Source of the DNA: an uncultured Eubacteriales bacterium
Lineage (GTDB): Bacteria > Bacillota > Clostridia > Oscillospirales > Acutalibacteraceae
Assembly (NCBI GenBank): GCA_964433065.1
Contig: CAYSPZ010000001.1
Location: 28,651-92,650 of the forward strand
DNA: 64,000 nucleotides
Direction of reading: 5' to 3'
Of this stretch, positions 178 to 16,591 are shown piece after piece. A program made the position numbers and the translations under genes. The notes beneath the pieces were generated by a model. The model had not been told where the DNA came from. It saw nothing but the letters and a program-made list of their open reading frames with translations, and made no database searches. The stretch's first letter is position 1, and each line of letters opens with the position of its first letter.

Positions 178-1332
178 TTATAAACCGAGTTGGTTGAGCA
201 TATTCACGACGGTGCCGCGTTTTTCGGCACTGATGTTTTTGACGATTCGGATCTCTTGCAAACCTCTGCTGAAGGCACGGGTTCTGAACAGGCGATGCCA
301 TCGGCGGAGTTGGAATACGGGGGTCATCCATTTTTTACCGCGCAGTTGCGGGTACAGGAGTGCCAATTTTTCGTAGGATAAGAACACCCGCTTGAAGCAG
401 TAACTGATCATACCGGTGTGGTTTTCTTTGTTGGTGGCATGTTTTTGGGCCAGGGTGCCGTAGACACCGCCGTCGAGCAGGAACCGCTCGCAATCTCTCG
501 AGAGGTCGGTGTGTGTGCCGTCCTCGATCCACACGTTCAATAACCGCAGCATGGTATCGTAAAACGTTTCGATACCGCAATCTTTCAGCATCGTGCGCAG
601 GGCGGTGTCGTCGTACGGCAGTTTGTGCCGTAAAATATACAGGTCGAGCAACGGTTTAAGACCGCATCCGCCTTCTGCGAAGTGGCGCACCATATGCGCG
701 ACCAGATAAAACATGGTGAATTCGTTGGTCAATTCACAGCGGTAGGAACCGTCGACAGGGGTAGCGAATTCCCACACCCGTTCCAACAGTTTGTCCAGAT
801 TGGGGGTACATTCAAAGATGTTGAAATGCAGTTCGAGGTGGACACCGCTTTTAGAAAATAGAGAAACGTTATGGTAGTGGGGACGGCGGTCGGTGGTATA
901 GCCGTAGGTATCGACCAGTACGTCGATGGCGCGGTCAAGGTCTTTTTTGTGTACCAACACGTCAAGGTCGCAACTGGTACGCATCCAGGCTTCGGCGTAC
1001 AGGTTGCGGATAACGGCACCCTTGAGCGGTATATACGGGATCTGCGCTTTTTCGAATGCCGCGCAGATGCAGGACAGGTCGTACTCGCTGATCTCGTACC
1101 GAAAAAGCGCTTTGTTCACCTCACTTGAAAACCGATCGTGCCAATCGCTTGTCAGCAAACCGCGGCGGTCGAGTGCCATACCGACCAGATGGGCGATGTC
1201 GTGACGCACGGAAAGGTCGTACAGGTCGTGGAGGTTTTTCTCGGTCAAGGGGTCGCAAGGTGTGGCGGATAACGTGGTGGGCATCGCCTCTTCGGCGAGC
1301 CACATCATCATATGATCCAGTAACCGTTTCAT
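178..1332 (-). CDS. Uncharacterised nucleotidyltransferase-family protein (NTP_transf_5-like), last gene of the polysaccharide operon
   Basis: The 391-aa ORF resembles the uncharacterised nucleotidyltransferase proteins common in capsule loci (recall only). I chose the ATG at 1332, 2 nt after the fnlC stop. A GTG at 1353 is the alternative start. Confidence 0.5.
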   Translation of the reverse strand: MKRLLDHMMMWLAEEAMPTTLSATPCDPLTEKNLHDLYDLSVRHDIAHLVGMALDRRGLLTSDWHDRFSSEVNKALFRYEISEYDLSCICAAFEKAQIPYIPLKGAVIRNLYAEAWMRTSCDLDVLVHKKDLDRAIDVLVDTYGYTTDRRPHYHNVSLFSKSGVHLELHFNIFECTPNLDKLLERVWEFATPVDGSYRCELTNEFTMFYLVAHMVRHFAEGGCGLKPLLDLYILRHKLPYDDTALRTMLKDCGIETFYDTMLRLLNVWIEDGTHTDLSRDCERFLLDGGVYGTLAQKHATNKENHTGMISYCFKRVFLSYEKLALLYPQLRGKKWMTPVFQLRRWHRLFRTRAFSRGLQEIRIVKNISAEKRGTVVNMLNQLGL

Positions 1333-1334
1333 AG

Positions 1335-2498
1335 TCAGCCGTCTTTTCTCCACACCATCTTGTCGACGACACCGGTGTAGGATTGAATGATCTTGACCAC
1401 TTTGGTGGACACATTTTCTTCGATATAATCGGGGACGGGAATGCCGTAGTCACCGTTTTGGTTTAAGGTGACGGCGGTTTCGACCGCTTGCAGTAACCCT
1501 TTTTGGTCGATGCCCGACAGGATGAAGCAGGCTTTATCGAGCGCTTCGGGACGTTCGGTGGAGGTGCGAATGCACACCGCGGGGAACGGGTGACCGACCG
1601 AGGTGAAGAAACTGGATTCTTCGGGGAGGGTACCGCTGTCAGACACCACCGCAAACGCGTTCATTTGCAGACAGTTGTAGTCGTGGAAACCGAGCGGTTC
1701 GTGGCGAATGACCCGTTTATCCAATTCGAAGCCGCTCTGTTCAAGACGGTTGCGGCTACGGGGGTGGCAGGAATACAGGATAGGCATATCGTACCGCTCT
1801 GCCAACGCGTTGATGGCACCGAACAGACTGTTGAAGTTCTTTTCGGTATCGATGTTTTCTTCGCGGTGGGCGGATAACAGGATGTATTTGCCTTTTTCAA
1901 GACCGAGCCGCGCGTGGATGTCGCTCGCCATGATCTCGTCGAGGTTGTTGTGCAACACTTCCGCCATCGGGGAACCGGTGACGTAGGTGCGTTCTTTCGG
2001 AAGACCGCAGTCGGCGAGGTAGCGGCGGGCGTGTTCGGAGTATGCGAGGTTGACGTCCGAAATGATGTCCACGATACGGCGGTTGGTTTCTTCGGGCAGA
2101 CATTCGTCTTTGCAACGGTTACCCGCTTCCATATGGAAGATCGGGATGTGCAGACGTTTCGCACCGATGACCGACAGGCAGGAGTTGGTATCGCCGAGGA
2201 CCAGAACGGCATCGGGTTTGATCTCGGTCATCAGTTTATACGATTTGGCAATGATGTTGCCGCAGGTTTCGCCGAGGTCGTTACCGACTGCGTCGAGGTA
2301 CACGTCTGGTTGGTCGAGTTTTAAGTCTTTGAAGAAGATACCGTTCAAGGTATAGTCGTAGTTCTGACCGGTATGTGCGAGAATGGTATCGAAATACTGA
2401 CGGCATTTCTGAATGACCGCCGCCAGACGAATGATCTCGGGGCGGGTGCCGACGATGATGAGCAGTTTCAGTTTACCGTTGTTCTTGAATGTTGCCAT
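1335..2498 (-). CDS. fnlC: UDP-N-acetylglucosamine 2-epimerase, non-hydrolysing (FnlC/Cap5G type)
   Basis: LKLLIIVGTRPEIIRLAAVI, GDTNSCL, HMEAGNRC, SAHREENID and a C-terminal NVSTKVVKIIQSY are colinear with Cap5G/FnlC as I recall it. Start taken at MATFKNN (2498), 1 nt after the fnlB stop. Confidence 0.9.
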   Translation of the reverse strand: MATFKNNGKLKLLIIVGTRPEIIRLAAVIQKCRQYFDTILAHTGQNYDYTLNGIFFKDLKLDQPDVYLDAVGNDLGETCGNIIAKSYKLMTEIKPDAVLVLGDTNSCLSVIGAKRLHIPIFHMEAGNRCKDECLPEETNRRIVDIISDVNLAYSEHARRYLADCGLPKERTYVTGSPMAEVLHNNLDEIMASDIHARLGLEKGKYILLSAHREENIDTEKNFNSLFGAINALAERYDMPILYSCHPRSRNRLEQSGFELDKRVIRHEPLGFHDYNCLQMNAFAVVSDSGTLPEESSFFTSVGHPFPAVCIRTSTERPEALDKACFILSGIDQKGLLQAVETAVTLNQNGDYGIPVPDYIEENVSTKVVKIIQSYTGVVDKMVWRKDG

Positions 2499-2499
2499 C

Positions 2500-3699
2500 T
2501 TATTCAACCTCCAGAAAGAAAGTGTCGGGGTGTTGCGGGTCAAACCGCTCGTTTGCCCACATCACGGTGACAAGGTCGTCCGTATCGGACAGGTTAATGA
2601 TGTTATGGGTATAGCCGGGGAGCATATGGACCGCTTCGATGCACTCTCCGCTGACTTCGAAGTTCAGCACCTCGTCGGTACCGACTTTGCGTTGTTGGAT
2701 GAGGCCGTGACCACTGACCACAATAAAAAATTCCCATTTGGTGTGGTGCCAGTGTTGACCTTTGGTGATGCCGGGTTTGGAGATGTTGACCGACACCTGT
2801 CCGCAGTTTTCGGTGCGCAGAAGTTCGGTGAACGAGCCGCGCGGGTCGACGTTCATTTTGAGGGGGAACGCGACCTTTTCTTTGGGAAGATAGGACAGGT
2901 AGGTACTGTACAATTTTTTGGCGAACGAGTCGTTCGGGATGTCGGGAATGGTCAGCGTGGTCGGTTGTGCGCGGAATTGTTCGAGCAGATCCACGATCTC
3001 GCCGAGTGTGACGTGATGGGTGGTGGGGACGGCGCAATAGGTGCCGTTTTCTTGGAGGACGGTGTTGATCCCGTCAAACTCGCAACGGTGTTCGCGTCCT
3101 TCGAGTGCGGCGATCATTTCCGCGATCAGATCGTCGATATACAACAGTTCGAGTTGTACCGACGGGTCGTTGACGGTGATCGGAAGGTCGTTGGCGAGGT
3201 TATGGCAAAACGTGGCGACCGCGCTGTTATAGTTGGGACGGCACCATTTGCCGAACAGGTTGGGGAAGCGGTAGACGAGCACCTTGGCGCCGCTTTCGCG
3301 ACCGTAGGCGAACATCAGGTCTTCCCCCGCTTTTTTACTGCGACCGTAGTCACCGTCGTAACGACCGATACAGGTCGCCTGAATGGACGACGAGATCATC
3401 ACGGGGCAGGTGTTACGGTGTTGTTTGAGCAGGGAAAGGAGGGTGTCGGTGAAGCCGCAGTTGCCTTTCATAAATTCGTCGGGGTTCTGCGGACGGTTGA
3501 CACCCGCGAGGTGAAACACAAAATCACAGTCGCGGCAACCGTCGTCCAGTACCGACGGGTCGGTATCGAGGTCGTACAGATACAACGTATCGATCGAAAG
3601 GGACGGGTGGGTCTTGTCTTTGCCGTCACGGATGTTTTGAAGTGCTTCCACCAGGTTTTTGCCGACGAAACCTTTGGCGCCGGTGATGAGAATGTTCAT
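2500..3699 (-). CDS. fnlB: FnlB/Cap5F-type reductase/epimerase (Rossmann N-terminus plus cupin C-terminus)
   Basis: MNILITGAKGFVGKNL, HLAGVNRP, NLFGKWCRPNYNS, LYSTYLSYLP and ISKPGITKGQHWHHTK match Cap5F almost block for block. Confidence 0.9.
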   Translation of the reverse strand: MNILITGAKGFVGKNLVEALQNIRDGKDKTHPSLSIDTLYLYDLDTDPSVLDDGCRDCDFVFHLAGVNRPQNPDEFMKGNCGFTDTLLSLLKQHRNTCPVMISSSIQATCIGRYDGDYGRSKKAGEDLMFAYGRESGAKVLVYRFPNLFGKWCRPNYNSAVATFCHNLANDLPITVNDPSVQLELLYIDDLIAEMIAALEGREHRCEFDGINTVLQENGTYCAVPTTHHVTLGEIVDLLEQFRAQPTTLTIPDIPNDSFAKKLYSTYLSYLPKEKVAFPLKMNVDPRGSFTELLRTENCGQVSVNISKPGITKGQHWHHTKWEFFIVVSGHGLIQQRKVGTDEVLNFEVSGECIEAVHMLPGYTHNIINLSDTDDLVTVMWANERFDPQHPDTFFLEVE

Positions 3700-3714
3700 A
3701 GTCCTCTGTCCTTT

Positions 3715-4761
3715 TTATTTGGTTTCTTTGGCGAGTTCTTCCTGAATATACGCGAGAGACGCGATCTTCGCTTTGGTTTCCTCCACCGTGAGCAGTTGGG
3801 TGTTGCTGGAGTTGAATTCGGTGAGGGGGTTACGTTCAGCATCGCCCTGCGACACGTATTTATCGTAGTTCAAGCCGCGTTTGTCCGACGGGACGCGGTA
3901 GAAGTTACCCATATCCACGGCGTTGGCGCATTCTTCGTTGGTGAGTAAGGTTTCGTACATTTTTTCGCCGTGCCGAATACCGATGACTTTGATGTTGTTC
4001 ACGTCGCCGCCAAACAGTTCGCAGACCGCTTTCGCCTGCGTTTCAATGGTGCAGGCGGGGGCTTTCTGTACTAAAATGTCACCGCTGACACCGTGTTCGA
4101 ACGCGAACAGGACGAGATCCACCGCTTCGTCGAGCGACATAATGAAGCGGGTCATCGAACCGTCGGTAATGGTGATGGGGTTGCCGCTGCGGATCTGGTC
4201 GATCCAGAGCGGAATGACCGAGCCGCGCGAACACATCACGTTGCCGTAACGGGTGCAGCAGATCTTGGTTTTGTTCGGGTCGACCGTACGGGATTTGGCG
4301 ACGATGACCTTTTCCATCATCGCCTTAGAAGTACCCATCGCGTTGACGGGGTATGCCGCTTTGTCGGTGGACAGGCAGACGACGTTTTTGACACCTGCTT
4401 CGATGGCGGCGGTCAGCACGTTTTCGGTGCCGATGACGTTGGTCTTGACCGCTTCGATGGGGAAGAATTCGCAGGAGGGGACCTGTTTGAGTGCCGCCGC
4501 GTGGAAGATATAGTCCACCCCGTGCATTGCGTTGCGGACCGAGTCAATGTCGCGCACGTCACCGATGTAGAATTTGATCTTGTCGGCGACTTCGGGCATT
4601 TTCACCTGAAATTCGTGGCGCATATCGTCCTGTTTCTTTTCGTCGCGCGAGAAGATGCGGATCTCGCCGATATCGGTTCTTAAGAAACGGTTTAACACGG
4701 CGTTACCGAACGAACCGGTACCACCGGTGATGAGCAGGGTTTTGTTAGTAAACAGTGACAT
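3715..4761 (-). CDS. fnlA: UDP-GlcNAc 4,6-dehydratase/5-epimerase (FnlA/Cap5E type)
   Basis: LLITGGTGSFGNAV..EIRIFSRDEKKQDDMR..FYIGDVRD is the hallmark CapE/FnlA N-terminus. The gene order fnlA-fnlB-fnlC is the canonical one. Confidence 0.9.
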   Translation of the reverse strand: MSLFTNKTLLITGGTGSFGNAVLNRFLRTDIGEIRIFSRDEKKQDDMRHEFQVKMPEVADKIKFYIGDVRDIDSVRNAMHGVDYIFHAAALKQVPSCEFFPIEAVKTNVIGTENVLTAAIEAGVKNVVCLSTDKAAYPVNAMGTSKAMMEKVIVAKSRTVDPNKTKICCTRYGNVMCSRGSVIPLWIDQIRSGNPITITDGSMTRFIMSLDEAVDLVLFAFEHGVSGDILVQKAPACTIETQAKAVCELFGGDVNNIKVIGIRHGEKMYETLLTNEECANAVDMGNFYRVPSDKRGLNYDKYVSQGDAERNPLTEFNSSNTQLLTVEETKAKIASLAYIQEELAKETK

Positions 4762-4776
4762 AGCGATTCTCCTTAT

Positions 4777-6126
4777 TTACACTTTTTCTTTTAAAAGTTT
4801 GTTTATCGTGATCGGTTCTGCGATACAGTACAATCCCACGGCAACCGTCGTGGCAAGCGGAACACCGATCCACGAATCCAGCGTCTGTACGAAAATCCAC
4901 GATAAGGCGATTTTCAGTACGGCACCGATGCCGAAGCAGATGAGTTGTGTTTTCAATTTACCCAGTCCGTTGGTGATGCTGGAAAGCACACTGTTAAAGC
5001 ACATCAAGCCGCCTTCAATTGCAAACACCGCCGCAAACGCGACCGAGGTTTGGATCGCTTCGTCGCCGAGCCAGAGGTTGACGCCGAGTTGTAAGAACGG
5101 GATGATCAAAAATTCACCCACCGTGGCAATGCCCGCAAACAGGCACAGTTTTTTGTACAATGAGCGGATCCAACGGTAGTCCTTTTCCGCAAAGGCTTTG
5201 GTAACCGCCGACCAGATGGGGGTCAGTGTCAGTGAAAACACCATACTGCCGAGTGAGAACAGTTTGTAGTATATCTGGTAGTCCACCACCGCGTCGGGGG
5301 AATACAGGGCGGTGATGAGATAGTCGTTGGTACTCATAATGAGCATATAGAAGACCTGAACCAACAAGAACACACCGCCGAGCGATAAGATCCCTTTCGC
5401 GTGTGTTTTACCGAAAAAGCGGGGTGACGGGCGGATGTCGCGCATACTTTTCTTCGCGAATACGACGACCGTTGCGACCAGTAACGGAAGCAAGACGGCA
5501 ACCGCGTGGACGATCGCCATCACGATCATATTACGGTCGTTCGAGCCGGAGGGAATGATCATGACGCACAGAACGGTCAATATAGAGGTGATCAGGTTCA
5601 GGAAGTTGTTGATAGACGATTTCTGTATTGCGTACAGAACGGAAGAGATCAGTTTAAAGAAGAACTGCAACATAATGCCGAAAAACACGATCGCGACCGA
5701 CAGGTACAGTGCTTTAGACGAAACGACCTGTGTTTCGATGTTGAAAACGGCGTTCCAATTGACAAACGAGAACGCGAACAGGAACACCGCCGACATCACC
5801 AGCACCAACGCGCCGATCGACAGGTAGGCGGAGGAAACGTATCGCCGTGCGTCGTCGCGGCGGTCTTCCGCAAGAGCCGACGTGAGGTGATTGCGCAGAC
5901 CGTTGCCGATACCCAGATCAAAGTTTAAGATCCAGTTGAGTACCGACAGTACCGTGAACCACAGACCAAGCGCCATTTCGTCGTGGAAAAAGCGCAGGTA
6001 GGCGGGCATGGTAAAGAGGGATACGCATAAACTGAGTCCTTTTACCAGAAACGCGCCGATCGTGTGGCGAAGAACGATCTTGTTGTTCTGGGACATATGT
6101 TTGTACTTTTCAATCCATCGTTTCAT
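4777..6126 (-). CDS. wzx: Oligosaccharide-unit flippase (MOP/Wzx family)
   Basis: 449-aa polytopic membrane protein with a Wzx-like N-terminus (..LVKGLSLCVSLFTMPAYLRFF..). Located inside the glycosyltransferase block. Confidence 0.7.
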   Translation of the reverse strand: MKRWIEKYKHMSQNNKIVLRHTIGAFLVKGLSLCVSLFTMPAYLRFFHDEMALGLWFTVLSVLNWILNFDLGIGNGLRNHLTSALAEDRRDDARRYVSSAYLSIGALVLVMSAVFLFAFSFVNWNAVFNIETQVVSSKALYLSVAIVFFGIMLQFFFKLISSVLYAIQKSSINNFLNLITSILTVLCVMIIPSGSNDRNMIVMAIVHAVAVLLPLLVATVVVFAKKSMRDIRPSPRFFGKTHAKGILSLGGVFLLVQVFYMLIMSTNDYLITALYSPDAVVDYQIYYKLFSLGSMVFSLTLTPIWSAVTKAFAEKDYRWIRSLYKKLCLFAGIATVGEFLIIPFLQLGVNLWLGDEAIQTSVAFAAVFAIEGGLMCFNSVLSSITNGLGKLKTQLICFGIGAVLKIALSWIFVQTLDSWIGVPLATTVAVGLYCIAEPITINKLLKEKV

Positions 6127-6128
6127 AG

Positions 6129-7274
6129 TTATTGATCCTCAATCAATCTGCAAAAAGAAGCAAAGAACGCGGTATCCAATTGTTGAATGACCCGTTTCCC
6201 GTCGTAGTCGTCGGCGAGGTCGATCGCTTGGATCGCTTTGGCAACACCTTCGGGGGTGTTTTCGTCGTAGTAGAACAGATCGTTGCCGACCTGCGACGTT
6301 TCGATTGCGGGAAGGCGCACCGTTACCACCCGCAGACCGTTTGCCATATATGCCAGGATCTTGGACGGGAAGGAGGTGGCGTTAAAGGCGGCATCCGGTT
6401 GTTGGGTGCTGAGGCCGATCTGACAACCGCCGAGAAAATTCAAGTAGTCGTCGCCCGACAAACATCCGTCGTAGGTGACGGTACACCCGCAACGGGAGGA
6501 AACGTCGGCGATGAGGTCTTTCATCTGTTGAACCTCCGAGTCGGTTCCGAAACCTAAAATATGTATATGGAACCGATCGGGCAGAAAGAGTGCCGCTTGC
6601 ACCGCCGTGCCGCCGCCTTTTCGCGGGTCGAGCGTACCGGCATACACACAATGCGTTTTGCCTTGTGCGGTGTCAATAAGAGGATGGACAACGGTTCGGT
6701 CATCGACCGTATGGTAGGTACCGTGCAATACGGTATAGGGTAAACGGCGGGTATTGATCAGTCGGTTGAGCATTTCACTTTGAAATACGTACCGATCGGC
6801 GAGTTGAAAGAACTCCAGTTCACGCTTTTTGATCCGCTCGTTTTCCGCTACGTCTCCGTAGATCTCACAGACCTGTAAGATCAAGTTGATATTGCGCTTT
6901 TTCAATACCGTTTTGACCGCATCCATAAACGAAAGCGAGTGATACACGAGAAGGGTGTCACCGTCATCGACCTGCTCCAGCAACGCACGTATCAAGCGGC
7001 GATGTTGGTGCCGTTTCCGTAAAAAACGGGATATCAGTTGCCAACATTTCGGACAGCGCTCGGTGGGTAACAGAATGGCTCTCACCGTTTCGCCGAGAGT
7101 GAGTTCCTGATACGGTAACGTTTGTCTGGACAGCGCGGGAGAAAGAACGACCGTTTCCCGTTTTGCGCGTTTCAGGCAATCGATGACGTATTCCATCACG
7201 GTGGTGCCGGCAGGAGAGGTACAGCGTCCGCCGTTCGCCACGTCGTAGTGGGCAAGATACACAATTTTACTCAT
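6129..7274 (-). CDS. Glycosyltransferase (GT-B fold, GT4-like)
   Basis: The C-terminal half (VYAGTLDPRKGG..ILGFG..SFPSKILAYMANGL) looks like the GT1/GT4 donor-binding domain. Confidence 0.6.
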   Translation of the reverse strand: MSKIVYLAHYDVANGGRCTSPAGTTVMEYVIDCLKRAKRETVVLSPALSRQTLPYQELTLGETVRAILLPTERCPKCWQLISRFLRKRHQHRRLIRALLEQVDDGDTLLVYHSLSFMDAVKTVLKKRNINLILQVCEIYGDVAENERIKKRELEFFQLADRYVFQSEMLNRLINTRRLPYTVLHGTYHTVDDRTVVHPLIDTAQGKTHCVYAGTLDPRKGGGTAVQAALFLPDRFHIHILGFGTDSEVQQMKDLIADVSSRCGCTVTYDGCLSGDDYLNFLGGCQIGLSTQQPDAAFNATSFPSKILAYMANGLRVVTVRLPAIETSQVGNDLFYYDENTPEGVAKAIQAIDLADDYDGKRVIQQLDTAFFASFCRLIEDQ

Positions 7275-7286
7275 AAAACGATCCCC

Positions 7287-8369
7287 TTATGACCAGAAGA
7301 AGCGGTATTCGTTGATACCGGCGCCGGGGGTGAGTACGATGTACTGCGCACAAAGCAGACCCACGATCAAACCATAAACGATCACCGTGTCGCGTTTTTT
7401 GAATGCCGCGTGGATGGACGGTGAGATCACCGCGTAGAACGGCAACATAAAGTAGTAACTGATGCGGAAAAAGACCGGCAGGTTCTGGCACATAATGGTG
7501 ATCATCATCGCGAGACACGCGACGTTGAACACCCGATCAAACGTATCTTTTTGGTCAAAGCGGTCTTTCGCATAGCACATTGCCACAACCACAAATGCGA
7601 AAAAGAACAGGTACAGGTAGAACGTACCGCCGCCCGAATACGACGTGAACTGGTCGGCGGCGGTGTATCCTTCGAACCGATCTTCTTGAAAGAACGCATT
7701 TGCCCCCCACGACACCAGACGGTGGTTGAGTGCCAGATCGATCACCGCAAAGGACAGACAAACCGCGCCGCTCACGATCGGTCGGCTCCATCGATAGAAC
7801 GGCCACGCGAGCAGGAAGGTGATCGCACTCGCATGGAACAACGATGCCGCGACGGTGAGTAACAAAAACCACAGCGTTTGTCCTTTTTGGAGTTTGACAA
7901 ACCCGATCCAACACAAGGACAGCGCGATCGCTTGACGAAGACCCGTCAGGGTGAAGGCATACATACGGAAGGTGACAAACAAAATATACAGCACCAACAT
8001 GTTGCCGGATTGGTGGTAGGCAAAATAAGAAAAAGAGATCGCCACGATGGCACCGACCGTGACCAGCAATAACTGCGGGTCGGGAGAAATGTAGGTGAGG
8101 ACTTTTCCGAACATCGAAAAGGTGGGGTCGCGTCCTTCTTTCCATTCTAAGATCTCCGCAAACGACAGTTTGGACAAATATTCATAGGTTTCGGCATAAC
8201 CGGGAAGGTCGATACCGACGGTGGTATCCCGCAATGCCGCAAATATAAACAAGATAAGACCCATCACGAAAACTTTCCGCTTTTTGTGGTTGGCGGCATT
8301 TTCGGACAGGCGCGGTTGACCGAAGGCGAGTTCGGTCACGACAAGTGAGATGAGCAGTAACAGGTGCAT
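7287..8369 (-). CDS. EpsG/Wzy-like polysaccharide polymerase (polytopic membrane protein)
   Basis: About 360 aa with many TM segments and EpsG-like composition, sitting between GT genes. Start moved to MHLLLLISL (8369); the longer ORF would overlap the upstream gene. Confidence 0.6.
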   Translation of the reverse strand: MHLLLLISLVVTELAFGQPRLSENAANHKKRKVFVMGLILFIFAALRDTTVGIDLPGYAETYEYLSKLSFAEILEWKEGRDPTFSMFGKVLTYISPDPQLLLVTVGAIVAISFSYFAYHQSGNMLVLYILFVTFRMYAFTLTGLRQAIALSLCWIGFVKLQKGQTLWFLLLTVAASLFHASAITFLLAWPFYRWSRPIVSGAVCLSFAVIDLALNHRLVSWGANAFFQEDRFEGYTAADQFTSYSGGGTFYLYLFFFAFVVVAMCYAKDRFDQKDTFDRVFNVACLAMMITIMCQNLPVFFRISYYFMLPFYAVISPSIHAAFKKRDTVIVYGLIVGLLCAQYIVLTPGAGINEYRFFWS

Positions 8370-8382
8370 AGTGTGTTCCTTC

Positions 8383-9594
8383 TTAACGATGGAGTTTACG
8401 GTAAAGGGCTTCGTAGTCCCGGTACATACGGCTTTCGCAGTATTGTTGTTGCGCGGCAACGGCGATCTTCTCTGCGTCAAACGCGGTGTTCAGGAAGGTG
8501 TCGATACACGCTTGTAGCCCGTCGAGATCGCCGTACGGTACGAATCGGGTACAGTCGGTAAGGGCGATGCTTTCGGGACCGCCCGCGCAAAAACCGACCA
8601 CGGGAGTGCCGCAACAAAGGCTTTCGGCGACCGGCATACTGAACGTTTCGCGTTTGCTGAGAATGACCGTCAGGTCTGCCGCCGAATACCACTCGGCAAG
8701 TTCATCCTGCGTTTTGGTTTTACCGAGCAGCAGGACGTTGTCGGGCAGTTCGCCGACCACCGAACGGTTGGCGGCGACCACGAATTTGATTGGCTGATCC
8801 TTCATTCGTTCGGCGAGTCTGAGCAGGTCTTTGCCGCCTTTTTCGTTGTCGTTGACCGTATCGAACAAGGCGGTGGCAAAAAAGACGATCTTCTCGTCGT
8901 TATCGGACGGGATCGGGGGATGTTCGCGGCGGTAGAATACCGACGTATCCACTCCGTTTAACACCGAGCAGTGGGAGAACCGCGATAACATCGGGGATTG
9001 TTCGGCGCGGCTTTGCAGCCACGGAGAAACCGCGACTACCGCGAATTGATCGGGATCAAACCCGTCGTAACACGCTTTCTGACTGCGCCACGTATGGGCA
9101 GTACCGTCAAAAAACATCGATTGGGTGGCAGCCCTTGCCACCGCGCAATGTCCGCAACCCGTTTTCCATTTTTCACAGTCGTGCGCGTGGGCGCAACCGC
9201 CCGTGTACGGGAATTCTGCGTGAAGGGTCAGTGCGGTCGGGATCTTGTGGGCGGACAGGTGCCGCAACAGACGGTAGACGTTGATGTTGTTGCCATTGAT
9301 ACAGTGCAGATGAACCACGTCGGGTCGTTCGCGTTTAAGGAGCGACAACAAACGGGAGGTCTGTACGAACGCGCCGTCAAACTGCCGCGCAAAAGCGCGG
9401 CGGTAGATGGCGGATAATTTCGATAAGATGGGGTTGGAAATGCTGTAAACGTTTCTGTCGGTGCCGCGTTGATGGCGCACCGCGCAGACCGCAACCGATT
9501 CGTGACCGTTTTGTTGCAGTTGTTCGTGGAGAACTTTAACGATCTTTCCCGTACTACCTTCGCCGTATACGCTGTTAATCTGACAGATCTTCAT
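8383..9594 (-). CDS. Glycosyltransferase family 4
   Basis: MKICQINSVYGEGSTGKIV is a GT4 N-terminus. The C-terminal region ..LLLGKT..LAEWYSAADLTVILSKRETFSMPVAESLCCGTPVVG carries an EX7E-like block. Confidence 0.7.
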   Translation of the reverse strand: MKICQINSVYGEGSTGKIVKVLHEQLQQNGHESVAVCAVRHQRGTDRNVYSISNPILSKLSAIYRRAFARQFDGAFVQTSRLLSLLKRERPDVVHLHCINGNNINVYRLLRHLSAHKIPTALTLHAEFPYTGGCAHAHDCEKWKTGCGHCAVARAATQSMFFDGTAHTWRSQKACYDGFDPDQFAVVAVSPWLQSRAEQSPMLSRFSHCSVLNGVDTSVFYRREHPPIPSDNDEKIVFFATALFDTVNDNEKGGKDLLRLAERMKDQPIKFVVAANRSVVGELPDNVLLLGKTKTQDELAEWYSAADLTVILSKRETFSMPVAESLCCGTPVVGFCAGGPESIALTDCTRFVPYGDLDGLQACIDTFLNTAFDAEKIAVAAQQQYCESRMYRDYEALYRKLHR

Positions 9595-10853
9595 TTCATC
9601 ACTTCATCGTATAAGATTTCACGCATCGTTTCGGCATTACATACCGTATTGTGATTGCGTGATGCGGTTGCTAAAGCGTTTTGAATATACCGTTGTTGCA
9701 AAGGTTCATCGTTTATCAGTTGTGATAACCGTTCGTGCAGGGTATCGGGATCGGTGATCACACAGGCACAGTCGTGCCGTTTTAAGTACTCGACACAGGC
9801 AAGGGGTTCGGGCGCGTACACCACGAAACATCTGCCGCTTGCCAGCGAATCACCGATCTTGGCGGTGAATGCCGTGCGCAATTTTTCGTACACGGTCGGG
9901 TCGAACGATTCGGTGTGGAGAAGAAAATCACTGTTTTCGATCACCCGTACCACCTGCTCGTACGGCACCCTGCTGTGGAAGCGGATACCTGCCTCCATAT
10001 TCAGTTCGTTGGTTGTGGTATCATCGGCACCGCCGTAAACGTCCAGCGCATAGTCAGACGAAATGGATTGCAGTGCTCTGGCGATCTCGATGAGGGAACG
10101 ATGCCGTTTTAAGCCGAGATTGCCCGCGTAGGAGAAGATCGGCGGATCGTTTAACGGTCGCGGTGACGGTTTGACCGTGGTTGACTGGTAGATAACGGTA
10201 CCGCGTTTGCCGAACGCCGTTTCGTATAATTGGTTGAGTGCGTCGTTTAAATAGATCTCGTGCGAACTGTACGCCATCAGTTTTCGGAATGCGCGGTTAC
10301 TTTCGGCGCGGTACAGTCTGTATAGCAGACCGTCGCCTTTTTGAGGACGGTCAAAGTAATAACTTTCGGTATTGTAAATGACAAGCGGCAACCGCCGTTT
10401 TTTGGCGATACGCAAGGCGATATTCGGAATAAAGGACGAGCCGCCGACCATCACGAGAACGATCTCGGGTGCGAAATCGTCGATCCAGCGGTCGAAGTCT
10501 TTCCCCCACCACCGCCGCGCGTTCCATACGGTATCGCGGATCAAGCGTTTTAAAGGGGATCGGGCACCTTTTCCCGCCGCCGAATCGGGTGCTGCGGACT
10601 CGGTGACTGCCGTCACCGTTTCGCCGTACCGTTTACCGGTCACAAACGAGCGCATGGCTTGTTTGTCGGTGACGCGGTAGTAGCGGCGGCAAACGGGGAA
10701 ATCGGGCGTTTCGTTTGCCACGAAAAACTGCGCCAGACAGTCGGGGTCCCATTCGCTGAAATATTGGCTCAGTACCTTGCCGTTGTTGGTGTTGCCGTAT
10801 GAAAATGCATTCATACTGATCACCAGTACGCGCGGAAAGTTGCCTTTGTTCAT
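9591..10853 (-). CDS. Glycosyltransferase-like protein (GT-B C-terminal domain, unassigned N-terminal domain)
   Basis: The C-terminal part (FSYAGNLG..DVYGG..FLLHTESF..KIGDSLASGRCFVVY) resembles a GT4 donor domain. A 4-nt overlap links it to the downstream GT. Confidence 0.5.
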   Translation of the reverse strand: MNKGNFPRVLVISMNAFSYGNTNNGKVLSQYFSEWDPDCLAQFFVANETPDFPVCRRYYRVTDKQAMRSFVTGKRYGETVTAVTESAAPDSAAGKGARSPLKRLIRDTVWNARRWWGKDFDRWIDDFAPEIVLVMVGGSSFIPNIALRIAKKRRLPLVIYNTESYYFDRPQKGDGLLYRLYRAESNRAFRKLMAYSSHEIYLNDALNQLYETAFGKRGTVIYQSTTVKPSPRPLNDPPIFSYAGNLGLKRHRSLIEIARALQSISSDYALDVYGGADDTTTNELNMEAGIRFHSRVPYEQVVRVIENSDFLLHTESFDPTVYEKLRTAFTAKIGDSLASGRCFVVYAPEPLACVEYLKRHDCACVITDPDTLHERLSQLINDEPLQQRYIQNALATASRNHNTVCNAETMREILYDEVMK

Positions 10854-10864
10854 AAATAAACTCC

Positions 10865-12136
10865 TTAAACGGTCAAGCCGTAGATGAACGGAACCGTTGT
10901 AATAATGGTCAAATAGGACAGGATATCAAACCAGATGGAGTATTTGAAATAGTCGTTGAACTGGTAGCCGACCGACATCGACATACCGAGCGTAGAACTC
11001 GCGAGCGGGCAACTGAGTGCAACACCCGACGCGATGGTGATACCGAGCGCGAAGGAATACGCGTTCAGACCCATCGACGGTGCGATTGCGAGGACGATGG
11101 GTAACACGATGAGGATCGCGGTGGAGTTGGACATAAATTCGCTGGTGAACTGTACGAAGAACACCAGAATACAGAACAGGACGAACGGGCTGACCGAGTC
11201 ACCCACCAGTTTGGCGAACAGGTCGGCGATCAGTTCGGTGCCGCCTGCTTTTTCGAGTGCTTTGGCAAGACCAAGACAACCGGCAAGTCTGCCGACAATG
11301 TTCCAGTTGACCGAGAGGATCGCTTTCTTCTGCGAGATGCAACCGGTGATGATACACAGAAGCGCCGCAGAGGTACTGGTGATGGCGAGCGGCAACCATT
11401 CGGTGATATACAGAACCACCGTGGCGGCAAAGATGACCGCCATCACGATCATTTTGGGTTTGCTGTGGGTAAGTTCGGTGCTCGGTGCGACGAGATCGTC
11501 CGCATCGTCGTCGGGACGGTTGCCCCAGATCTTTTCACCGCGTTTGCGGCCGACAAACAGGCAGTACAGCAGACCAAAGATGACCAGGATACCGCCGACC
11601 AGCGTAAAGTCAAACGTTTTGAAGGTGCGCAGACCTGCGTCTTCAAGCAGACCTTGCGCGGTCATTTGTTGGGTGGAACCGACCAGCGTGGACGCACCGC
11701 CGATGACACAACCGTAGGCGATCGGCATAATGAGGTTCTTTGCTTTCACCGCACCGGTCGCGGCAAGACCCATAATGATGGGAATAAAGATCGCGAGTAC
11801 TGCCGAGTTGGTCAAAAAGGCGGACATTGCCGCCGATACCAGATAGGTGCCGACGATCAGTTTCACTTCCGAGCCTTTGGACACCTTGACGATCCATGCG
11901 CCGATGGTTTCGGCAAGACCGGTTTCGGAGATCGCCGCGCCGATGATCATAACGCCGATGGTCAGAATGACGGTGCTGGATGCGAATTGACCGAACGCGG
12001 TCTTAAAATCGCACACACCGAAGATGACCATTACCGTGCAACCTAAGATCGCGGTGGTCGCCATCGGGAGTTTGTCCCACACGAACAACACGATACACGC
12101 GACAAATAAGATCAGTGATAATACGTCTAAACCCAT
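10865..12136 (-). CDS. SLC13/DASS (ArsB/NhaD superfamily) anion or carboxylate permease
   Basis: 423 aa made of two hydrophobic halves split by a charged loop (GRKRGEKIWGNRPDDDADD), typical of DASS-type permeases. It is embedded co-directionally in the polysaccharide operon. Confidence 0.6.
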   Translation of the reverse strand: MGLDVLSLILFVACIVLFVWDKLPMATTAILGCTVMVIFGVCDFKTAFGQFASSTVILTIGVMIIGAAISETGLAETIGAWIVKVSKGSEVKLIVGTYLVSAAMSAFLTNSAVLAIFIPIIMGLAATGAVKAKNLIMPIAYGCVIGGASTLVGSTQQMTAQGLLEDAGLRTFKTFDFTLVGGILVIFGLLYCLFVGRKRGEKIWGNRPDDDADDLVAPSTELTHSKPKMIVMAVIFAATVVLYITEWLPLAITSTSAALLCIITGCISQKKAILSVNWNIVGRLAGCLGLAKALEKAGGTELIADLFAKLVGDSVSPFVLFCILVFFVQFTSEFMSNSTAILIVLPIVLAIAPSMGLNAYSFALGITIASGVALSCPLASSTLGMSMSVGYQFNDYFKYSIWFDILSYLTIITTVPFIYGLTV

Positions 12137-12160
12137 AGTTAAAAACCTCTCTTTGTATAA

Positions 12161-13069
12161 TTATTTCGATACGCGATATGCGTTATCTTGTTCTTCATTG
12201 GAACGCAGGATGCGGTCCACCTCTTCGCGCGGTAAGAATTTCCGTTTGAATTTCATTGACAGAAAATTGCGAAGCGACGGCGGAATAAGCAGTTGGTACA
12301 CCACGCGCACGGCGCTTTGTTTCAGGTACGTTTTGCGGTCGCACAGACCGTGTTGCAACATATAGCGGCGCAAAGCGGCGCCCGCTTTGAAATACGTCCA
12401 GCCGCCGTGGCGACGGGCCTGGTTTCTGCCGATCCGCACATACACTAAATATTCGGGGATATTGCGGAAGGTGCAACCCGCTTCGATCATCCGCGTCCAC
12501 AGGTAATAGTCCTCGTGGTAGTGCAGGTGTTGGTAGTTGCCCGCTTTGAGTACCGCGTCGCGGCGGAACAGGACGGTCACGTGGCTCATCGGGCTGCGGC
12601 GCGGCAAAAACCGGGCAATCTCCTCGTGGGTGAGTTTCCGTTTCGCGGAAGAGACTTGTCCGCTTTGCAGATCGTCGCAAAAACCGAGCGTCCAACCGCC
12701 GATCACGTCGGCGGGTTGTTGTTTGTACGCTTCGATCTGTTTATAGAACCGACCGGGGGCGGAAATGTCGTCGCTGTCCATTCGCAGGATCAGGTCGTAC
12801 CGACATTCTTCCACCGCTAATTTTAAGGCTTGTCCCAGTCCGCCGTTTCGTTCCAGTTGACGGACGGTAAAGTTGCCGTATTGTGCGGCATAACGGTCGA
12901 TGATCTGTTGCAGTTCACTGCCGATCGGACCGTCGATCACCAGAAAGATCTCGTCCGCAGGCAGCGACTGGGTACAGATGCTTTCGAGCGCCTGTTCCAA
13001 CTGTTCCGGTCGGTCGTTCTTGTAGACCGACATTGCCACCGAAAATTGGTATTGTTTGTCTGACATCAT
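12161..13069 (-). CDS. Glycosyltransferase family 2
   Basis: FSVAMSVYKNDRPEQLEQALESI..QSLPADEIFLVIDGP..RMDSDD is the GT2 (GT-A) signature, including a DXD-type motif. Confidence 0.8.
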   Translation of the reverse strand: MMSDKQYQFSVAMSVYKNDRPEQLEQALESICTQSLPADEIFLVIDGPIGSELQQIIDRYAAQYGNFTVRQLERNGGLGQALKLAVEECRYDLILRMDSDDISAPGRFYKQIEAYKQQPADVIGGWTLGFCDDLQSGQVSSAKRKLTHEEIARFLPRRSPMSHVTVLFRRDAVLKAGNYQHLHYHEDYYLWTRMIEAGCTFRNIPEYLVYVRIGRNQARRHGGWTYFKAGAALRRYMLQHGLCDRKTYLKQSAVRVVYQLLIPPSLRNFLSMKFKRKFLPREEVDRILRSNEEQDNAYRVSK

Positions 13070-13078
13070 TGCAAACTC

Positions 13079-14239
13079 CTATCTCTTGCGTTTTTCCATT
13101 CCTTTTTTATTCTTCATAACGCATTGAATGGAGTAGGTAACGTACGGCAGGGGATCGGACAACGAGAAAACGATATCCTTGATTCCCTTACGACCGGTGG
13201 TGGAGGGTTCTTTGCGGAACCTGTCTTTCGATTTTGCCCACCACATAAACCCTGCCTGCGAGTGGGATACCCGCATACCGTAGTTGAGTTGTTCGGGAGC
13301 GGGGGTGACGATCACGCCGTAGGCAAGTTCCAGTAATTGACGGACGATGGGCAAACCCGCCAGTACGCTGACTTTGAAACTGGCGGAAATTCTTCCGTTG
13401 ATCTCCATCACTTTCGGGATCTTATCGTGTTCGTTTTCGATGAAGCACACCGACGCGTAGCCGCGCCAGCCCATCATCTGTAACAACAGTTCGGATTGTT
13501 TGGCAACGTCGGGCATATCGACGCTTTCAAACAGACTGTTGGTGCCGATGCCGAGCGGATACGGGCGGGTGGATTTGGAGATCATCGAGGATACGGCATT
13601 GCCGTTGTCGTCGATGACGGTATAGGATACGCGGTGTACTTCCGCTTCTTCGACAAATTCCTGAATGACGTATTCTTCGACCACCACATCGCCGCTTTCG
13701 ATGAGCGCGTCGAGTTCTTCGCGGTTATGTACTTTTTTAAAGCCGACCGAACCGCGACCCTGACGGGGTTTGAGCGCGAGCGGGAAGGACACTTTTTGAA
13801 GGTATTCGTCCATCGTTTCGTCGTCCATCTTGGTGATGGGGCAACCGATGCCGTTTTCCATACAGATCTTCATGGTCAACTGCTTGTCGTGCGCTTTTTT
13901 ACACGCGTCGAGCGGCGGCGCGACCACCTTGACGTAAGGGGTCAGGTCGTCGATACGACGGGCAATGATCTCGGTGGATTCTTCCAAAACAGGGAAGATG
14001 ACGTCGTATTCACCCGATCTCGCGGCATCGAGAATCCATTGCTCGTAGTACGCGAGATCCTCTTGAAACCGATCGTCCAGTATCCGCTTTTTCGGGTAAC
14101 GGGACGCGTATCCCACGTCCAATTTCGAGCCGTTGAGGGTGGTGACAATACATCCGAGTTTGTTCAGTTCTTTTAACAGGATCGCATTCTGGCGGCAGTA
14201 TCCGTCCAGCAGCAATACTCTGATACCCTTAAAATTCAT
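13079..14239 (-). CDS. ATP-grasp domain ligase
   Basis: Pre-ATP-grasp Rossmann-like N-terminus, then KPRQGRGSVGFKKV and EYVIQEF..VMEINGR motifs typical of ATP-grasp carboxylate-amine ligases. Confidence 0.7.
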   Translation of the reverse strand: MNFKGIRVLLLDGYCRQNAILLKELNKLGCIVTTLNGSKLDVGYASRYPKKRILDDRFQEDLAYYEQWILDAARSGEYDVIFPVLEESTEIIARRIDDLTPYVKVVAPPLDACKKAHDKQLTMKICMENGIGCPITKMDDETMDEYLQKVSFPLALKPRQGRGSVGFKKVHNREELDALIESGDVVVEEYVIQEFVEEAEVHRVSYTVIDDNGNAVSSMISKSTRPYPLGIGTNSLFESVDMPDVAKQSELLLQMMGWRGYASVCFIENEHDKIPKVMEINGRISASFKVSVLAGLPIVRQLLELAYGVIVTPAPEQLNYGMRVSHSQAGFMWWAKSKDRFRKEPSTTGRKGIKDIVFSLSDPLPYVTYSIQCVMKNKKGMEKRKR

Positions 14240-14256
14240 ACTGTTACTCCTTTTCG

Positions 14257-15117
14257 TTAACGGCTTCTCAGCGGGAATACCGCTTTGTGAAGCAGATACG
14301 TACGTTTATTTTCGCCAAGGATCGCTTTAAGTACCGCATACCCCGCACGGACCATCCATCGGGGAAGATATACCACGAATTTCGCGCGACCTTGTCGTTT
14401 TTCGTCACGGATATAGTCCGCCGTGTTCATCCGCTGTGCATCTTTGATGATCCGCACATCGTTTTGTGGCGTTTCACCGCACCAGTCGACCATCGCTTTT
14501 ACGGCGCCGTTGATATTTAAGATCTCATATTCTGTACCGCTGCCGATGCGGTAGGCAATGTTCGGATATTTCAGATAATACCGTTTTTGAATATCCCGTT
14601 TTACCGTGTCGGTATAGACGGGAGACAAGCGGAAGATCGTGTAGCAGTTGAGTTTTTGGCACTGCGTTTCCGCCAACACTTTGGAGGCCGCGTAATACGA
14701 GATCGGCTGCGGTTTTGTGTTCCCGTCAACCACCGACTGCGTAAACCCGTACACGTCTACCGTACTGATGAACAAGAGCGGTCGTTCATCCGCCGCTTCG
14801 AATACGTTGGCGGCACAATCCACGTTTACATGTCGGTATTCTTCCCACGTATAATCTTTTCCGTTAACGAAATGAGCCAACGCCGCCAGATGGATCACAC
14901 GGCCGACCGCGTGATCGCTGATGATCTGTTTGAGCGTTTGCGTATCCGCCAGATCGACAACGTAATGCGTGTATCGTTCGTCCTCCACACAGGCATTTTG
15001 GCGGTCGATACCGATAACACGGTATCCTGCCGCCAAAATTCCTTGCACCGTTGCCGACCCGATCATACCGGAGGCACCGGTTATGAGAACGGTCTGTAAG
15101 TTGGTTTGCTCAATCAT
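14257..15117 (-). CDS. NAD-dependent sugar epimerase/dehydratase (extended SDR)
   Basis: VLITGASGMIGS glycine motif and a YYAASK catalytic motif. Start moved to MIEQTN (15117), which gives an ATGA overlap with the upstream gene. Confidence 0.75.
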   Translation of the reverse strand: MIEQTNLQTVLITGASGMIGSATVQGILAAGYRVIGIDRQNACVEDERYTHYVVDLADTQTLKQIISDHAVGRVIHLAALAHFVNGKDYTWEEYRHVNVDCAANVFEAADERPLLFISTVDVYGFTQSVVDGNTKPQPISYYAASKVLAETQCQKLNCYTIFRLSPVYTDTVKRDIQKRYYLKYPNIAYRIGSGTEYEILNINGAVKAMVDWCGETPQNDVRIIKDAQRMNTADYIRDEKRQGRAKFVVYLPRWMVRAGYAVLKAILGENKRTYLLHKAVFPLRSR

Positions 15118-15815
15118 ACACGAACCTCTTGTTCTTGTGTTTCGTCCGTCGTCGGTGCGCAGGCGATCAGTTCGTCCAGCATCCATTGCGGGTTTTTACG
15201 GACGATCATCGAGAAGATGCAGATCACCGTGTACCAGATCAGTTTGATGTCGTACCACACACCCATATGGTTAGGGTAGTACACTTCCAGTTCCAATCGG
15301 GTGGGCAGGACCAATCGTTCGTAGTCGTCGGTGCCTTCGATGGCATCACCGTACAGGTAATCATACAGTGCCGCAGGGCTGGTCAGACCGGGACGAACCT
15401 CTGCCGCAACGGCATATTTGCCCGCGCGCATAATGTGGACCTGATCTTTCGCCGCAGGACGGGGACCGACCACCGACATCGAACCGTCCAGTACGTTGAG
15501 CAGTTGCGGCAGTTCGTCGATCTTTAGTTTGCGGATCACCTTACCGAACGGGAAGATACGGTCCGCGTCAGCCTTGAAACTGGCTTCGCTTTTCTCGGCA
15601 TCGTTTCTCGCAACCCGCATACTGCGGAATTTCCACATCGCAAATTCTTCGTTATGTAAGCCGATCCGCCGCGCTTTGAAGAAGATCGGACCGGGATCCG
15701 AAAGAAAGATACCCAGTATGGTGACGATCCAGATGGGGGACGTTACCAGAATGCCGAGCAACGCGGCAACGATATCAAAGCAGCGTTTACAGAATAAATA
15801 CCCTTTTCGGTTCAT
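15114..15815 (-). CDS. Small phosphoglycosyl transferase (bacterial sugar transferase, PglC/WbaP C-terminal type), initiating enzyme
   Basis: KRCFDIVAALLGILVTSPIW..GPIFFKARRIG..FAMWKFRSM..DELPQLLNVLDGSMSVVGPRP is the PF02397-type signature. Confidence 0.85.
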   Translation of the reverse strand: MNRKGYLFCKRCFDIVAALLGILVTSPIWIVTILGIFLSDPGPIFFKARRIGLHNEEFAMWKFRSMRVARNDAEKSEASFKADADRIFPFGKVIRKLKIDELPQLLNVLDGSMSVVGPRPAAKDQVHIMRAGKYAVAAEVRPGLTSPAALYDYLYGDAIEGTDDYERLVLPTRLELEVYYPNHMGVWYDIKLIWYTVICIFSMIVRKNPQWMLDELIACAPTTDETQEQEVRV

Positions 15816-16495
15816 TACACAATTCTCCTAAACACAGATTCAAACGCTTCCGCGTAGTAGCAACCCGCCTGTGAACCGCGATAGGCGGCAAGACCTTTCA
15901 GGGTCTCTTCACTGCGGGGGTGGGGGTACGGACGCATCACACCGCGATAGCGGGCAAGGGCGGCGATCTTCATATCGACACCGTCTTTACCGACCTCAAC
16001 AAAGGTGTTGGGTTGGAATCGGTTCATCGCGTTGTTCAGGTTCCAGTCGGTAGCGGAGAGCGCTTCCATAAACCAGACCTGCTGAATGGGTCTGACCTCC
16101 GGACGACGTTGGAACAACCGCACCGCCGCACTGCACGCGAGCGACGTGTGCAGATGGTCGTTGTTGGTGTCCGCCGGATGGTGGGTGATGACCACGTCCG
16201 CCTGTGACTCAATGATGGCTTTTTCGATAAACTGAACCAGACGCAGATGCGGTTCGGCATTCATCTCAATATTTGGGAAATCACCCAGATACAGATTGCG
16301 GACACCAAGCATTTTGGTGCTTTGACGCATATCGTCGTCCAATTCCTCATTTTCGGGACGGAACGCACGGGCTTTCGCCGCCGCGCACATAATGCAAACA
16401 TCGACGTTGTGTCCTTCCTTTGTCCATTTGTAGATCGACGCACCCGCGCCCAATGCCTCATCATCCGGATGAGCGACAACGATCAAATAGTTCAT
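15815..16495 (-). CDS. PIG-L/LmbE-family N-acetylglucosaminyl deacetylase
   Basis: The N-terminal VVAHPDDEALG motif plus HHPADTNNDH are the zinc-binding signature of the LmbE/PIG-L family. First gene of the operon. Confidence 0.8.
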   Translation of the reverse strand: MNYLIVVAHPDDEALGAGASIYKWTKEGHNVDVCIMCAAAKARAFRPENEELDDDMRQSTKMLGVRNLYLGDFPNIEMNAEPHLRLVQFIEKAIIESQADVVITHHPADTNNDHLHTSLACSAAVRLFQRRPEVRPIQQVWFMEALSATDWNLNNAMNRFQPNTFVEVGKDGVDMKIAALARYRGVMRPYPHPRSEETLKGLAAYRGSQAGCYYAEAFESVFRRIV

Positions 16496-16562: not shown

Positions 16563-16591
16563 ATTATAGCACCCCTTTTTGTAAAACGCAA
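16563..16591 (-). promoter_or_regulatory. Candidate sigma-70-type promoter of the polysaccharide operon
   Basis: On the minus strand: TTGCGT, 17 nt, TATAAT, with a TGC just upstream of the -10. It lies about 70 nt upstream of the ATG at 16495. Confidence 0.45.

Follow-up and report, generated by a model that had tools for sequence, protein, structure and literature searches.

Transferases of the PglC family load N-acetylhexosamine-1-phosphate onto undecaprenyl phosphate, the acylating domain of PglB2 of Neisseria is an ATP-grasp, and the choline permease LicB of the lic operons is an importer dedicated to a surface-glycan substituent. Bacterial glycans are known to carry succinyl, glyceryl and 4-hydroxybutyryl amides, and some acid amides act there as backbone linkers. 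N-malyl and N-hydroxyglutaryl sugars exist there as well (PMC3210612). In the Pat/Pyl pathway for UDP-yelosamine of Bacillus cereus ATCC 14579, as outlined in a later paper, an ATP-grasp enzyme joins 2-oxoglutarate to an amino sugar (PMC11626204, citing Hwang et al. 2014). The Wbp/Vim linking-sugar pathway of Porphyromonas gingivalis and Tannerella forsythia was proposed to deacetylate its sugar at C2 and then to re-acylate it, with VimE as the putative CE4 deacetylase (PMC7468200). The Neisseria PglB2 GATDH pathway attaches glycerate to the amine of the first sugar, the one transferred by PglC (PMC6959607), and Cj1438 of Campylobacter jejuni is a capsule amidoligase of ATP-grasp fold which forms an amide in the surface glycan (PMC11800379). 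Here we analyzed a 64,000-nucleotide stretch of DNA (the window), a part of contig C1 of a gut-Clostridia-type metagenome-assembled genome (1.76 Mb, 83% complete) whose relatives are uncultured gut Clostridia. Its minus strand carries a polysaccharide operon with genes for a PIG-L-type deacetylase, a PglC-type transferase, an ATP-grasp enzyme and an SLC13/DASS-type permease.

On balance, gene content and comparative evidence favor, if only slightly, the reading that this is a mobile Wzx/Wzy polysaccharide cassette in which the first sugar is de-N-acetylated and then N-acylated with an imported small carboxylate. PglC, as known for its family, would make undecaprenyl-diphosphate-linked N-acetylhexosamine, PIG-L would strip the N-acetyl group and free the amine, and the ATP-grasp enzyme would turn a carboxylate into an acyl-phosphate and couple it to the freed amine as an amide; the permease would bring in this acid or its immediate precursor. 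The GT2 and GT4 glycosyltransferases would then extend the unit, to be flipped by Wzx and polymerized by Wzy. The sugar acylated is probably the first one and not the product of the Fnl enzymes encoded in the same operon, since PglC remains a companion of the cassette, which is also found in loci lacking fnl genes. Acylation of the lipid-linked sugar may be more likely than that of the UDP-sugar, because the PglC sequence does not follow the acyl module and the ligase ends in aromatic, basic helices, which hints weakly at this timing.

Deacetylase, PglC and ATP-grasp ligase

A sample anchored on the ATP-grasp comprised 80 metagenome loci, 23 of them well covered (at least 4 kb on both sides). 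Exactly one deacetylase was found in 21 of these 23, PIG-L in 14 and a DUF3473/XrtA-type protein in seven, and the two never occurred together. On the ATP-grasp tree (FastTree) at least 10 switches of deacetylase type are forced. That two unrelated deacetylase folds fill one slot is good evidence for a dependence of the ligase on a deacetylated amine. Deacetylase and PglC were also present in all 14 assessable GTDB loci holding both the ATP-grasp family and the permease, with seven PIG-L and seven DUF3473 proteins. The alternative deacetylase is NodB/CE4-like, its best match being the XrtA-system family TIGR03006 (166.6 bits, below the cut-off). As judged from these gene contents, the fixed core of the cassette is the deacetylase, PglC and the ATP-grasp. 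The first-pass annotation of this DNA had proposed deacetylation followed by re-acylation as the work of a PIG-L/ATP-grasp/permease triad; the logic gained strong comparative support, whereas the triad proved not to be fixed, PIG-L being swapped for NodB/DUF3473 in half of the assessable GTDB loci.

The opposite direction of catalysis, of the TupA/Cj1438 type, would have the ATP-grasp enzyme activate the carboxyl of a glycan uronic acid and add an amine to it, with the deacetylase leaving an amino sugar whose amine is free and positively charged; such a scheme gives no reason why the ligase is almost always paired with PglC and a single deacetylase. The C. jejuni capsule amidoligase was shown to work in this direction (PMC11800379), and nucleotide-sugar dehydrogenase-like genes are found in the relatives L056 and L099, but the ATP-grasp of the window has no TupA-like Pfam match, and a UDP-sugar 6-dehydrogenase (PF03721) was found neither in the operon nor, above the cut-off, in the 83%-complete genome. 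With no uronic-acid pathway, we regard it as very improbable.

The AlphaFold model of the ligase (pLDDT 91) has a biotin-carboxylase-like fold (TM about 0.65) with the three domains, nucleotide lysines, glycine loop and E-x-N metal motif of the ATP-grasp superfamily; K119, K157, G161/G163, Q193, E279-x-N281 and R283 are invariant. Sequence and fold searches of the PDB returned generic matches only (identity of at most 18%), a weak similarity to L-amino acid ligases was seen, and the Atlas label of its neighbors is carboxylate-amine ligases. No curated NCBIfam cut-off was passed (PRK12767 CPS-like, Ddl, RimK, PylC; at best 74.9 bits vs 218). Thus the enzyme matches no characterized family, and the clustering with a characterized unrelated enzyme that the first-pass annotation had named as a threat to its proposal did not appear. 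Unusual architectures were met among its homologs: a WecG-type glycosyltransferase fused to ATP-grasp (641 aa; L081:9227-11152), a 712-aa ATP-grasp protein followed by a 760-aa PrpD-AKR fusion (L071, L072), and a 27%-identical ATP-grasp on the Haloprofundus plasmid pMHR1-4 (L142), adjoining an archaeal glycan cluster with a polysaccharide deacetylase and an aminotransferase.

The PIG-L protein scored well above the Pfam cut-off of 28.2 bits and carries the AHPDDE and D-x-N-x-DH motifs, with the HPDD and DH metal motifs invariant in 27 homologs. In the usual H-P-D-H motif its subfamily has Asn (or Gln) in place of His, and the catalytic activity is assumed. Its closest solved structure is diacetylchitobiose deacetylase. 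A role as a BshB/MshB thiol-cofactor deacetylase was rejected on the score (44.6 bits vs an equivalog cut-off of 182.5) and the Wzx/Wzy context.

The identity of PglC to that of the window was 41-72% in PIG-L loci, whichever the ATP-grasp clade, and 29-37% in DUF3473 loci whose ligases are 40-64% identical. By these identities, the PglC sequence follows the deacetylase type and not the ATP-grasp clade or acyl module. The SDR seems dispensable to the arrangement, being missing in L020 and in the close relatives L129 and L133; its best PDB matches, to UDP-glucose 4-epimerases and dehydratases, are weak, and its most likely start is an ATG at 15117, giving 286 aa.

The permease and the acid

The permease accompanies 12 of the 14 members of the window's ATP-grasp clade (100% support), and both exceptions are truncated contigs. 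Other modules occur instead in the other clades. In the sister clade these are PrpD, an Fe-S hydro-lyase, a C-C lyase, a thiamine-pyrophosphate (TPP) decarboxylase and an AKR7-like reductase or 2-hydroxyacid dehydrogenase, joined in two loci by LysR and a DctM transporter; in a distant clade (30-33% identical, 15 loci) it is an opine dehydrogenase. The three modules (permease, PrpD/hydro-lyase with or without DctM, opine dehydrogenase) were never found together in loci of the window's ATP-grasp family, and their distribution follows the clades. Characterized PrpD-family enzymes act on di- and tricarboxylates (PMC12290011). The simplest reading of this pattern is that all three modules are routes supplying the acid, so that the permease is predicted to be a supply module, not a part of the core.

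The PrpD modules (for example L068:14894-21028, L099:12219-21161 and L060:2333-10011) also hold divergent TtdAB/fumarase subunits, a phosphonopyruvate-decarboxylase-like TPP enzyme, an AKR7-like reductase, and a conserved protein of 300 aa that matched nothing in Pfam, NCBIfam or the PDB; placed inside glycan loci, such a module looks like an undescribed hydroxy-acid pathway. At L099:13633-15304 and L056:12255-13926 an orphan DctM-type transporter, its 96-aa membrane partner and LysR adjoin the sister-clade ATP-grasp.

The second sample, anchored on the permease, contained 43 GTDB loci (permease clade of 67-94% identity). The window's ATP-grasp family was present in 15 of these 43 genomes, always on the same contig and strand and at most 20 kb away, compared with four (besides the window genome) of 400 unselected genomes of the order. 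A close permease was found in only one of the 400 (G270), where it shares a locus, on the same contig, with a close ATP-grasp; neither was found in 200 genomes of the family, among which was a 99%-complete one of the same genus. Since close orthologs of both genes are each so rare, the gene arrangement is not due to chance. The cassette is rare and patchy, and probably mobile.

Outside the window's ATP-grasp family, the permease keeps similar company. Ten of the 43 loci adjoin a second ATP-grasp lineage, followed in five by a DesI/VioA-like aminotransferase with RmlA and RmlB; five hold a third lineage with PrpD, and in two of these a LegC/PglE-like aminotransferase and PglC are also present; two further loci with PrpD lie on truncated contigs, and three (L032, L033, L042) carry an AMP-ligase, an acyl carrier protein and MBOAT, which together resemble a Dlt set for acyl transfer. 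These other ATP-grasps are about 23-25% identical to that of the window. Where an aminotransferase is the amine source, no deacetylase was seen nearby. Altogether, a carboxylate-activating enzyme accompanies the permease in 33 of the 43 loci, and a 40%-identical permease occurs in the same setting in L078. The idea put forward at first pass that the permease supplies the acid gained strong comparative support from these associations, in contrast to its place in a fixed triad, which the other modules of distant clades and the broken copies described below contradict. The same annotation had taken absence or variability of the permease in related loci as a sign against the proposal; in the window's ATP-grasp clade it is kept, even at the operon tail.

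Several observations weigh against a supplying role. In the wider ATP-grasp family the permease was present in only three of 78 metagenome loci (many contigs being short), so that most distant ATP-grasp loci lack it; eight of the 43 permease loci show no ligase (three near a contig edge, four non-glycan, one remnant-like); in at least four (L005, L029, L039, L043) the permease lies outside glycan loci; and three of the 43 copies (L034, L036, L040) are broken. The counts of both samples overstate independence, because the loci are related and near-duplicates are included. The permease also stays below the TIGR00785 cut-off (130 vs 198.6 bits), PF03600 and PF00939 being above theirs, and in fold it is about as close to carriers of sulfate (NaS1) and phosphate (Pho90) as to those of dicarboxylates. 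Re-acylation might be real with an acid made inside the cell, the permease being a passenger or an importer of sulfate, phosphate or a growth substrate; LysR, which precedes it in L004, L005, L009, L018, L023 and probably L030, would suit a passenger. We consider this unlikely. A carboxylate-activating neighbor was kept through many partner swaps (17 label changes on a quick permease tree, with a minimum of five), the permease was retained after moves of 10-18 kb within the locus, no sulfotransferase or 3'-phosphoadenosine-5'-phosphosulfate (PAPS) genes were noticed in its neighborhoods, and none at more than 45% identity was found outside the cassette in 600 unselected relatives. Apart from this, frameshifts or an internal deletion, due to decay or assembly error, were noted in the copies L034, L036, L040 and L078.

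The model of the permease has the SLC13/DASS fold (VcINDY, TM 0.79). With VcINDY and the SLC13 Na+-coupled anion symporters it has in common both hairpin asparagines and the flanking hydroxyl residues, in the motifs TNS (109-111) and SNS (336-338) vs two SNT motifs in VcINDY, but only about 20% identity. Its substrate cannot be read from the sequence because the GSPPN/ATPPN-type motifs are replaced by GSTQQ/ASSTL. A second 423-aa permease, of the CitMHS/IT superfamily, is encoded next to pyruvate kinase (52544-53815, minus strand) and is unrelated to that of the operon (24% identity over 176 aa).

As to the acid, a C4-C5 (hydroxy)dicarboxylate, such as malate, succinate, 2-oxoglutarate or 2-hydroxyglutarate, appears most likely, with a hydroxy-monocarboxylate as a less likely option. 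An amino acid or a derived acid (aspartate, an opine), attached by the ATP-grasp and imported by the permease, seems improbable. The opine/octopine dehydrogenase gene lies immediately 3' of the ATP-grasp (L103:4660-5907 and 14 other loci), a placement which suggests opine amides on amino sugars, and the weak likeness of the ligase to L-amino acid ligases and the precedents of VimA and N-acetyl-aspartyl amides point the same way, as do the APC amino-acid permeases of the related loci L009, L016 and L028. However, the opine clade is the distant one, the modules of the nearest sister clade are typical of hydroxy-acid chemistry, and the same permease also serves PrpD-containing loci. In L009, L016 and L028 the APC permease shares the glycan locus with sugar-transfer-associated ATP-grasps and the DASS permease.

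In the 83%-complete window genome no match to class I fumarase, malic enzyme or lactate/malate dehydrogenase was found. Class I fumarase was present in 25 of the 43 permease genomes, and in 10 of the 15 with the window's ATP-grasp family, a count that speaks against the favored reading; import is thus not simply compensating for an inability to make malate, and compensation for missing tricarboxylic-acid-cycle enzymes was rejected as a general rule.

It is a tentative and rather doubtful thought that a dedicated importer clade, one transporter plugged into four unrelated acylation systems, lets gut Clostridia scavenge a single specific organic acid of host, dietary or community origin, and that they build this acid into the surface glycan, where it may form a main-chain linker whose hydroxyl is glycosylated by the adjacent GT2; the structure of the surface antigen would then depend on an outside metabolite.

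The operon and its surroundings

The open reading frames were typed by Pfam, and curated families were checked against NCBIfam cut-offs. All genes named at first pass are present, in the given order, in a single minus-strand operon (Table 1).

Table 1. Features of the polysaccharide operon in the window, in the direction of transcription.
Feature	Coordinates	Strand	Evidence and remarks
Candidate sigma-A promoter of the operon	16563..16591	-	TTGCGT, 17 nt, TG-n-TATAAT extended -10; read from sequence, consensus match only
PIG-L/LmbE-family Zn de-N-acetylase, 226 aa	15815..16495	-	PF02585 67.8 bits, E 1.7e-18; predicted to free sugar amine
Small monotopic phosphoglycosyl transferase, PglC type, initiating enzyme	15114..15815	-	PF02397 E 7.9e-52
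Extended SDR, likely 4-epimerase or reductase	14257..15117	-	PF01370; optional cassette member
ATP-grasp carboxylate-amine ligase (predicted), 386 aa	13079..14239	-	PF02655/PF02786; aromatic/basic C-terminal helices
GT2 glycosyltransferase	12161..13069	-	PF00535; directly after ATP-grasp in most loci of the window's clade
SLC13/DASS-type permease, 423 aa, predicted acyl-donor importer	10865..12136	-	PF03600 223.8 bits, PF00939
GT4-type glycosyltransferase	9591..10853	-	Pfam
GT4 glycosyltransferase	8383..9594	-	Pfam
Wzy polymerase, EpsG family	7287..8369	-	PF14897; likely start 8369, 360 aa; length agrees with L129 ortholog
GT4-like glycosyltransferase	6129..7274	-	PF13692, weak
Wzx flippase	4777..6126	-	PF01554/PF01943
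FnlA, FnlB (WbcJ type), FnlC; UDP-L-FucNAc-type 6-deoxy amino sugar pathway	1335..4761	-	TIGR04130 519 bits, NF047837 350 bits, TIGR00236
NTP_transf_5 nucleotidyltransferase, uncharacterized, last operon gene	178..1332	-	PF14907

The initiating transferase, glycosyltransferases, flippase and polymerase of a Wzx/Wzy-dependent locus are all there; no Wzz/chain-length or kinase gene was found in the operon (178-16495). Other contigs of the genome (C5, C14 and C22) carry two LCP genes and a single marginal match to Wzz. The tight packing of the permease gene between two glycosyltransferase genes was confirmed, with gaps of 24 nt to GT2 and 11 nt to GT4, the other checked junctions of the operon ranging from -4 to 17 nt. 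Among the Fnl matches, TIGR00236 alone reaches its curated cut-off, TIGR04130 and NF047837 staying below. The NTP_transf_5 gene was found again in seven other permease loci.

The consensus match upstream is likely the sigma-A promoter of the operon; a weaker match at 16585-16556 in the promoter scan overlaps it. Divergently from the operon runs a GH43 + CBM6 gene (16670-18109, plus strand), missing in the close relatives L129 and L131, in which a gene of an FAD-oxidoreductase sits immediately before PIG-L in its place.

Comparison with known systems

The first-pass annotation knew of no described system of this kind. In the literature on ATP-grasp or PIG-L in O-antigen clusters and on malyl-glycan genes we found no description of this cassette, ATP-grasp is not mentioned in the T. 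maritimum O-antigen paper, and no paper assigning a deacetylase + ATP-grasp route to the dicarboxylate and hydroxy-acid amides of bacterial glycans was found, the literature coverage being incomplete. The cassette is less unprecedented than the annotation implied, because each step has a precedent in Pyl, VimE/VimA and LicB. It is best viewed as an uncharacterized variant of the known N-acylation of amino sugars, with every chemical step precedented and the combination unstudied; the comparisons that support it are unusually clean. As a compact cassette of a non-pathogen it offers a four-protein system for testing the deacetylase + ATP-grasp acylation route, and with its modular supply genes, acyl groups may become predictable from genome sequences. 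Should the importer prove necessary, the surface structure of these gut bacteria would hinge on metabolites from outside.

LicB differs from the DASS permease in transporter family and cationic substrate, and choline is linked by a phosphodiester rather than an amide. The PglB2 system likewise puts a non-acetyl acid on the amine of the first sugar (PMC6959607), but there the acylating domain is fused to the transferase, the 4-amine is derived from an aminotransferase, the product serves protein glycosylation, and neither deacetylase nor importer takes part. With Cj1438/TupA-like enzymes the cassette has in common an ATP-grasp fold forming amides in a surface glycan (PMC11800379); these are of another ATP-grasp family, need a uronic acid and work with opposite polarity, joining a sugar carboxylate to a small amine.

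Closer likeness is found in the two remaining systems. The Wbp/Vim pathway is proposed to deacetylate and then re-acylate, and VimE is a putative CE4 enzyme, as the alternative deacetylase of the cassette family is NodB/CE4-like. Unlike the ATP-grasp, its ligase VimA (N-acetyltransferase/FemAB-like) adds serine or glycine, the sugar is a di-N-acetyl uronic acid, and there is no importer (PMC7468200); no VimA/FemAB-type amino-acyl transferase or Wbp genes were found in the window operon. The Pat/Pyl system combines an ATP-grasp, a dicarboxylate and an amino sugar, and is encoded beside a small PglC-type transferase, with no importer in the passage describing it (PMC11626204). Its 4-amine comes from an aminotransferase acting on the UDP-sugar, whereas the cassette presumably uses a deacetylase: the window operon holds no aminotransferase to go with a 4,6-dehydratase as in Pat/Pyl, while the loci L015 and L031, with the same permease, do hold a sugar aminotransferase and a 4,6-dehydratase as for a UDP-4-amino sugar. 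On the features compared, the predicted cassette thus resembles Pat/Pyl combined with the VimE/VimA logic and belongs to neither.

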